64,000 nt of DNA from a virus. Below are positions 51,553 to 52,806 of the stretch, one piece after another; the first letter of the stretch is position 1, and the number at the start of each line of letters is the position of its first letter. The notes under the pieces are model-generated. The model was not told where the DNA came from, did no database searches, and worked only from the letters and a program-made list of their open reading frames with translations. A program made the translations under genes and the position numbers. The stretch is taken from positions 779 to 64,778 of IMG/VR virus record IMGVR_UViG_3300044699_000100; one strand, 5' to 3'.

Positions 51553-52806
51553 TGGTTCGCTCCATTTGCTTGGTACTCTCCTCTGGGCTGGCTCGCTCTC
51601 TAATCATGGCACTCTCGGCAGCGTTGGCTCGCTCTTTTTTCTTGGTGCTCTCAGGTCCCATGGCTCACTCTTTTTGCGTGGTTCTCTCGGCGTTCATGGT
51701 TCGCTCATTACTTTTGGTGCTCTCACTCGTTATGGCTCGCTCACTTTAGGTGGTGCTCTCTCGTAAGATGGCTCGCTCACTGAATGTGGTTCTCTCTTGT
51801 TGAGTGGCTCGCTCTCGTGGTTTGGTACTCTCTGAGAGGGTGGCTCGCTCTATTTGTATGGTGCTCTCGCAGGCGATGGCTCACTCATTCGATAAGGTTC
51901 TCTCGGCATCCATGGTTCGCTCACCGAATGTGGTCCGCTCTCTTAGTAGGGCTCGCTCAACTGATATGGCGCTCTCTGATTGGCTGGCTCGCTCTTCTTT
52001 GAGGGTACTCTCACTGCACAGGGCTCGCTCACGTCGGTTGGTTCTCTCACACTGAGTGGCTCGCTCATTCCACGTGGTACTCTCTCCTTAAATGACTCGC
52101 TCTTCTTGCTTGTTCTCTCGGTATTGGTGGCTCGCTCCGTTGGTTTGGTTCTCTCATTCTTCATGGCTCGCTTAGATTTTCTGGTGCTCTCGCTTCACGT
52201 GGCTCGCTCATATAGAGTGGTGCTCTCTACTGGGATGGCTCGCTCTATTGGTTTGGTACTCTCCGACGTTGTGGCTCGCACGTTTGACATGGTTCTCTCG
52301 CGTTCTATGGCTCGCTCCATATTTTTGGTGCCCTCACTGTATATGGGCTCGCTCACTCCATATGGCACTCTCGGCTATTCCGGCTCGCTCCGTTGTTCCG
52401 GTACTCTCTATTCCAATGGCTCGTTCCGGATTTGTGGTACCCTCATCTGCTTTGACTCACTCTCGGTACTTGGTACCCTCGCTGCCTATGGCTCGCTCGC
52501 CAATCGTGGTGCTCTCAGAGCAGGTGGCTCGCTCATTCTACATGATACCCTCAGGTCCATTGGCTCGCTTATCATTTGTGGTTCTCTCTTGTCGAATGGC
52601 TCGCTCTAGGCCGACATGGTACTCTCTGCTCCAATGGCTCGCTCACCATATATGGTTCTCTCGTGCCTAATGACTCGCTCGTATTGGATGGTGCTCTCCT
52701 AGCAAGTGGCTCGCTCACTCCATATGGCACTCTCGGCTATTCCGGCTCGCTCGTTTTACATGGTACTCTCAATTCTTTTGGCTCGCTCATCGATTATGGT
52801 ACCCTC
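51553..52806 (-). repeat. TIGR-type guide-RNA array, downstream of the tas gene (70 alternating repeats, 35 units of 36 nt)
   Basis: The + strand alternates TGGCTCGCTC / 8 nt / TGGTNCTCTC / 8 nt. On the - strand this is GAGCGAGCC + 9 nt + GAGAGNACC + 9 nt. The period holds over 1254 nt with only three small indels, and spacers are almost all unique. Confidence 0.92.

Follow-up and report, generated by a model that had tools for sequence, protein, structure and literature searches.

A dual-repeat TIGR-Tas locus in a soil phage genome

The sequence that we analysed (the window, 64,000 nucleotides) comprises bases 779-64778 of the 65,490-bp IMG/VR virus record IMGVR_UViG_3300044699_000100, which is rated complete, and it represents nearly the whole of a 65-kb soil phage genome. 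The phage collection contained no close relative of this genome, and a search of IMG/VR, the JGI metagenome contigs and the phage collection for near-identical strains returned none, with the qualification that near-window records possibly lie outside that search. At 51553-54045, on the minus strand, the window contains a TIGR-Tas locus with the order array 2, tas, array 1 (Table 1). The locus shows a period of 36, arrays of 35 and 10 units, two alternating 10-nt repeats and an adjacent Nop-domain gene, and is a dual-repeat TIGR-TasA system, a known kind. We found no reverse transcriptase or integrase-like gene in the neighbourhood of tas.

Table 1. Features of the TIGR-Tas locus, in window coordinates
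Feature	Position	Strand	Description
TIGR array 1	51553..52824	-	35 units, each 36 nt long; follows tas on the downstream side
Duplicated unit, copy 1	52346..52390	-	13th unit from tas, both flanking edge repeats included
Strain-variable block	52681..52778	-	three edge-bounded units, including copy 2; edge repeats at both borders
Duplicated unit, copy 2	52708..52752	-	3rd unit from tas
tas, TasA type	52819..53652	-	Nop/IS110-like domain, no nuclease domain
TIGR array 2	53676..54045	-	upstream of tas; 10 units, both repeats as in array 1

Two sequence patterns were noted in passing. A 16-nt near-palindrome (TTACCT, 4 nt, AGGTAA, and variants) occurs at about 44 sites in the genome, for example at 51537, 52827, 53656 and 55935; it often stands just upstream of start codons, and it abuts both arrays. 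A 36-nt periodicity above the array threshold is also present at 14657-15495 and 29538-29793, where it probably reflects repeats within coding sequence.

In the window the tas frame is broken three times, by 1-nt deletions after 53385, 53203 and 53156. The missing bases are present in contigs of other soil metagenomes, and all three deletions fall in short homopolymer runs. With the three bases restored, tas is a single frame of 278 amino acids that is 86% identical to protein P0001. We considered whether the gene might be a decayed pseudogene, which is unlikely given that the three frameshifts lie in short homopolymers and that other runs have none of them. Further genes of the window also appear to be split (47713-49379 and 56246-57558).

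The middle piece of the Tas protein matches PF02371 (E 7.5e-6), and Tas also matches the solved Tas proteins PDB 9mty (4.8e-5) and TasH (3e-4); the intact relative encoded in locus L004 matches TasH at 7e-10. The Tas proteins of the relatives are intact, at 270-280 amino acids, and homologues number more than 1,400. When we looked for a near-identical intact Tas, the best match was 74-76% identical to the query piece. The protein lacks a nuclease domain, and it is therefore assigned to TasA. Its C-terminal loop has an invariant His and a nearly invariant Tyr, a sequence pattern consistent with the published Y/H dyad for processing into 36-nt tigRNAs that end mid-way in the edge repeat. The stretch occurred in no RNA run.

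Edge and loop repeats

Read as RNA, the 36-nt unit consists of GAGCGAGCCA (the edge repeat, 10 nt), 8 variable nucleotides, GAGAGNACCA (the loop repeat, 10 nt) and a further 8 variable nucleotides. The initial annotation had taken GAGCGAGCC as edge repeat and GAGAGNACC as loop repeat, and this assignment is correct on three grounds. The first is the array ends: both arrays begin and end with a GAGCGAGCCA-type edge repeat, and the first edge repeat of array 1, which overlaps the tas stop codon, has a degenerate 5' half, matching the description by Faure et al. The second is the criterion used by TIGRFinder, in which the edge repeat is the one whose inner 4 nt have complementary ends. The inner 4 nt are CGAG in the edge repeat, with complementary C and G ends, and AGNA in the loop repeat, with ends that are not complementary; the extra pair C4:G7 exists only in the edge repeat. 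The third is covariation across the 56 related loci described below, in which positions 3 and 8 of the edge repeat occur as G:C, T:A and A:T, and positions 4 and 7 as C:G and T:A.

Downstream of array 1 there is no terminator, and the array runs into the ribosome-binding site of the next gene. In the related loci L003 and L004, by contrast, a GC-rich inverted repeat closes the array, and on visual inspection it resembles a terminator. One spacer of array 1, at 52607-52617, is 2 nt longer than the others (10 variable nucleotides); a contig from another soil run (X1, below) is gapless there, and the length is probably real. In the systems of Faure et al., the two spacers of a unit bind opposite strands of a single DNA target. 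A scan of the window with all units for targets in the phage itself gave a single match at no more than one mismatch, which is the chance level, and we rejected self-targeting by the duplicated unit or any other.

An exact duplication of one whole unit

The stretch 52346-52390 is identical to 52708-52752 over 45 nt, as had been reported, and the adjacent bases differ at once, G versus T to the left and C versus G to the right. Each copy consists of an edge repeat, a spacer, a loop repeat, a spacer and an edge repeat, that is, one whole unit with its borders. The two copies are ten units apart, their offset of 362 nt being 10 units plus the 2 nt contributed by the long spacer. Parsing array 1 into its 35 units places the identical pair at units 23 and 33 (plus-strand numbering). 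All other pairs among the 45 units of the two arrays differ in at least 6 of 18 spacer letters, as column shuffles predict. In 200 such shuffles the smallest distance between units was never below 3, and the 45-nt identity is therefore not a matter of chance.

Two rare variants travel with the copy, both of them noticed in the initial annotation and borne out by the parsed array. At the third plus-strand base of the loop repeat, a C is found in 3 of the 35 units, two of which are the duplicates. A C in place of T just before the next edge repeat, corresponding to the box C variant CCG, is found only in the two duplicate units.

The G at 52345, immediately left of copy 1, is missing from the contigs of two other runs, and without that G the identity would extend to 46 nt; we rejected the base as an insertion scar, and it is a window-specific homopolymer indel. 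Five pairs of single spacers in the window are one letter apart, which is about the estimated chance number. Growth of the whole window array by duplication and divergence was likewise rejected, the distances between units fitting the shuffled null with the exception of the exact pair. An exact look-up of the spurious reading frames that run across either copy found them absent from the collection.

Spacer register and box C

From the copied C, it had been argued that the base belongs to the spacer and that spacers are 9 nt long. This argument fails, since the position is the adenine of box C and is conserved. That the C was copied shows only that it lies between the breakpoints, and is therefore no proof that it is a spacer base. 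Across the window arrays the three positions of box C (CCA) are conserved at 92-100%, 100% and 87-92%, and the last of these is conserved at 89-100% in L003/L004 and at 97-100% in L005-L008. Its variability resembles that of other repeat positions, whereas the truly variable positions, 8 per spacer, are conserved at 26-56%. In two related loci, L080 (5821-7072) and L026 (6931-7415), CCG serves array-wide as box C in one or both repeats. Because those arrays have G as their consensus, CCG is a variant at the level of the repeat. In solved Tas complexes, moreover, the box C adenine stacks on the protein and the DNA junction and does not pair with the target.

The count of nine may nevertheless hold, but with the additional base at the opposite end of the spacer. 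The published geometry has a box C of 3 nt, a spacer of 9 nt, a box D of 2 nt and a gap of 4 nt. Laid over the present units, it makes box D AG rather than UG, and the ninth spacer position becomes a constant G. This G starts every repeat (87-100%) in both arrays and in loci L003-L092. Pairing is possible between the G of box D and the C that opens box C, and the relatives covary at these positions (G:C, T:A, A:T).

Comparison with other soil runs

We compared the locus with assembled contigs of four soil runs, X1-X4, from four studies. Copy 1 is found with the window's neighbours on both sides in an X1 contig (52212-52680) and an X3 contig (52243-52394). The left end of copy 1 is also the very first base of an X2 contig (52346-52507), which confirms only the right-hand context of the copy. 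Copy 2 is a different matter: 52699-52778 is covered in none of the four runs, and in X1 and X4, which come from two studies, about 134 nt comprising four other units replace the 98 nt at 52681-52778. One of the replacement units resembles its neighbour, with 5 differences in 45 nt. The presence of copy 1 in three runs and of copy 2 in none argues that copy 1 is, to judge from these contigs, the shared and older copy. Copy 2 is best read as recent and strain-specific; that it is a chimera of the assembly is less likely.

The possibility of a chimera deserves to be weighed with some care. In that case each copy would exist in some strain, but the contig would be a consensus of co-occurring strain variants, and no single genome would carry the unit twice. 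Copy 2 does lie within the block that varies between runs and is uncovered in X1-X4, strain variants of that block co-occur in soils, and exact-pattern scans turned up no other contig with the unit (with the same reservation about near-window records). The quality of the window assembly is also limited: compared with up to three runs, it has many 1-nt indels that are missing from those runs, all of them in short homopolymers and occurring about every 400 nt in the locus stretch. The sites are 52111, 52345, 53156, 53203, 53385 and 53798 (also 52818), and these indels explain both the tas frameshifts and the odd spacer lengths of array 1 units 16 and 22 and array 2 unit 4; they are either assembly errors or private changes. 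The same indels tell against a chimera, however, as errors of this type suggest sequencing with long or fairly long reads, which would reach across the 407 nt containing both copies. Assemblers of the De Bruijn type, furthermore, collapse repeats and do not create them, and real duplicates of the same kind occur within arrays in four unrelated assemblies (see below). The start of the X2 contig at 52346 adds a weak hint, as it would follow if the 45-mer were preceded by two different sequences in that sample as well. On balance we regard a chimera as unlikely, though as the most serious of the alternatives, and we consider it reasonably probable that the duplication is real rather than an artefact.

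Array 2 also differs between runs. Its first plus-strand unit in the window (53677-53712) corresponds to two units in X1 and X4: the window version has the first spacer of one unit followed by the second spacer of the unit after it, and the two forms differ by 36 nt, from loop to loop. In X1 an additional whole unit is inserted at 53783-53793, and the other runs have one or two more array 2 units than the window. A smaller difference was seen in array 1 of X2, which departs from the window at 4 positions within 7 nt (52135-52141). The changes fall in a single spacer and the last part of its edge repeat, the units on either side being identical, and mark a spacer that has been replaced or changes fast.

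Whole-unit turnover in related phage arrays

The duplicate in the window is, taken alone, one anecdote, and the comparison with relatives contributes more. We fetched 80 loci of the clade and parsed 56 of them, obtaining about 930 units and 1,854 spacers. Exact duplicates within a locus were bounded by edge repeats (A-loop-B) in four cases, as compared with one bounded by loop repeats (B-edge-A). The four lie 13 units apart in L008, 2 apart in L055, 2 apart in L066 and in tandem in L070. When pairs with up to 3 differences in 16 positions were admitted, there were 13 edge-bounded pairs within loci (0.1 expected) and 4 loop-bounded pairs (about 0 expected); diverged copies of units are thus about a hundred times commoner than chance in the related arrays.

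In L008 and in L070, as in the window, the two copies have a rare loop variant in common. This observation bears on the idea that two independent uptakes from one source brought in the same pair of spacers, as happens with CRISPR spacers. Such a history would have to produce identical copies of a loop variant found in 3 of 35 units and of a box C variant confined to the duplicates, and to do so in similar fashion in L008 and L070; we consider it highly improbable. The rare variants that were copied along argue instead for copying of DNA.

In comparisons of sister arrays, gains and losses are counted together. Ten pairs of sister arrays, partly overlapping and not independent, gave 14 clean internal indels, every one of them a whole (A-loop-B)n block. 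As one example, L070 consists of the L071 array and two identical units in tandem, and the sister L071 is without that unit altogether. The positions of ten clean indels, from seven of these pairs, range over 0.07-0.86 of array length, with no preferred end. The initial annotation had proposed that related arrays be compared for whole edge-to-edge gains and losses and for the end at which they occur, and this is how the indels behave: in whole units, and at no particular end. Polarised addition of the CRISPR kind was not seen; the variable block of the window is proximal to tas, which is a single case.

Loci L005-L008 provide a further illustration. Their arrays (L005 3451-4342, L006 2662-3589, L007 1731-2190 and L008 2326-4009, with 25, 26, 13 and 47 units, respectively) are mosaic, with common blocks in different orders, and their tas genes are near-identical. 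A unit that combines a rare loop variant with a rare variant of the following edge repeat occurs in all four, and twice in L008. Between the window and the 56 related loci, 1 of 90 spacers was shared, which is the chance level.

Not every event respects the edge repeat. Replacement blocks between sister arrays ran from edge to edge in 8 cases and had at least one loop breakpoint in 7. Moreover, 28 single spacers are present two times within a locus, in each case as A both times or as B both times, and another spacer serves once as A and once as B; about 1 such pair is expected. The 28 mostly have unrelated partners and often sit in adjacent units, and they are explained by neither whole-unit copying nor chance. 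The proposal that the unit of inheritance is bounded by the edge repeat therefore stands as the usual rule, given the 14 of 14 indels and the 13 versus 4 near-duplicates, but it is not absolute, as the fusion in array 2 and the sharing of single spacers make clear.

The preference for the edge repeat itself calls for comment. The probability that two repeats are identical is 0.50 for the edge and 0.37 for the loop. Since the edge is only modestly more uniform, the bias must come either from selection that keeps guide pairs intact or from a mechanism acting on whole units. A dedicated mechanism of unit insertion, using for instance the mature 36-nt guide RNA as a template or a processing site in the edge repeat, would account for clean indels that are all whole edge-bounded units, and for the rare adjoining edge-repeat variants that accompany their unit in L005-L008, where homology alone is not an obvious cause of the bias. 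Selection against chimeric guide pairs gives the same bias, however; nor would such a mechanism lead one to expect loop-bounded events, shared single spacers and indels without a preferred end, or a tas neighbourhood devoid of reverse transcriptase and integrase-like genes. We therefore hold dedicated insertion to be improbable.

How the copy may have arisen

Unit-wise recombination shapes these arrays. For the window we infer that a whole unit was probably copied by recombination or template switching at edge repeats and that both copies are now on one molecule. The breakpoints lie inside the 10-nt edge repeats, and recombination or template switching between such repeats would make the second copy, either within one genome, by short-patch conversion, or between co-infecting variants that have the unit at different places. 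The direction of copying would be from the older 13th unit to the newer 3rd unit, within the strain-variable block of three units. We found neither a recombination intermediate nor a donor strain. The outcome would be two identical guides, a second dose with no new specificity.

The suggestion that arrays may grow by whole-unit copying or recombination can be retained in part, as unit copies and indels recur in the relatives, but it does not account for where new spacers come from. Unit copying makes no new spacer, and the source of new guides is not shown by turnover. It is conceivable, and we put it forward tentatively, that arrays of this clade diversify by the birth and death of edge-bounded units without adaptation machinery, copies, made in tandem or at a distance, and point changes in their 8-nt spacers together giving rise to new guide pairs, much as in box C/D snoRNA clusters. 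If so, the exact duplicate in the window would represent the youngest stage of that process.

We offer these results as a modest but usable comparative lead, consisting of indels of whole units, variants inherited together with their unit, paralogous units that have diverged, and the lack of polarity. They argue that the two-spacer unit, and not the single spacer, is what stays together. The pairs L070/L071 and L059/L066, the group L005-L008, and the window with its counterparts in other soil runs offer concrete natural material for following how arrays turn over.

Comparison with known systems

The initial annotation stated that the way in which TIGR arrays gain spacers is not established, and the founding paper (PMC12045711, 2025) and a survey of 6,685 arrays (September 2026) say the same of how spacers are gained and kept. 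In the literature searched, up to September 2026, we found nothing on duplication of TIGR units or on copies within an array; the only "duplication" in the founding paper is that of CRISPR repeats (PMC12045711). The present locus resembles the dual-repeat TIGR-TasA systems described there (Faure et al. 2025, PMC12045711), FpTasA for example, in that box C (CCA) ends each repeat, the Nop-domain gene is small and nuclease-less, arrays lie on both sides of tas and the host element is a phage. It differs from them in having 8 nucleotides that vary per spacer and 10-nt repeats, a box D of AG instead of UG with a constant G before it, and an array 1 that has no terminator and 35 units in place of the usual 5-15.

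Like CRISPR arrays, these arrays have exact internal duplicates and whole-unit indels between strains that arise via the repeats and bring no new specificity. In CRISPR, units are added at the leader end by Cas1-Cas2, whereas here there is no adaptation gene and the indels between sister arrays show no polarity. The unit also differs, being made of two spacers and two kinds of repeat, with breakpoints that favour one of them.

In clusters of box C/D snoRNA genes and of archaeal sRNA genes, evolution proceeds as guide regions are duplicated and then diverge. The TIGR-TasA locus has in common with them the box C/D guides, a Nop-domain protein and tandem paralogues that are a few guide bases apart, the 13 near-duplicate unit pairs of the related loci being the counterpart of such paralogues. 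The snoRNAs and sRNAs direct methylation of RNA and are encoded as separate genes or within introns, whereas the units described here are contiguous, 36 nt long and would guide the binding of DNA.
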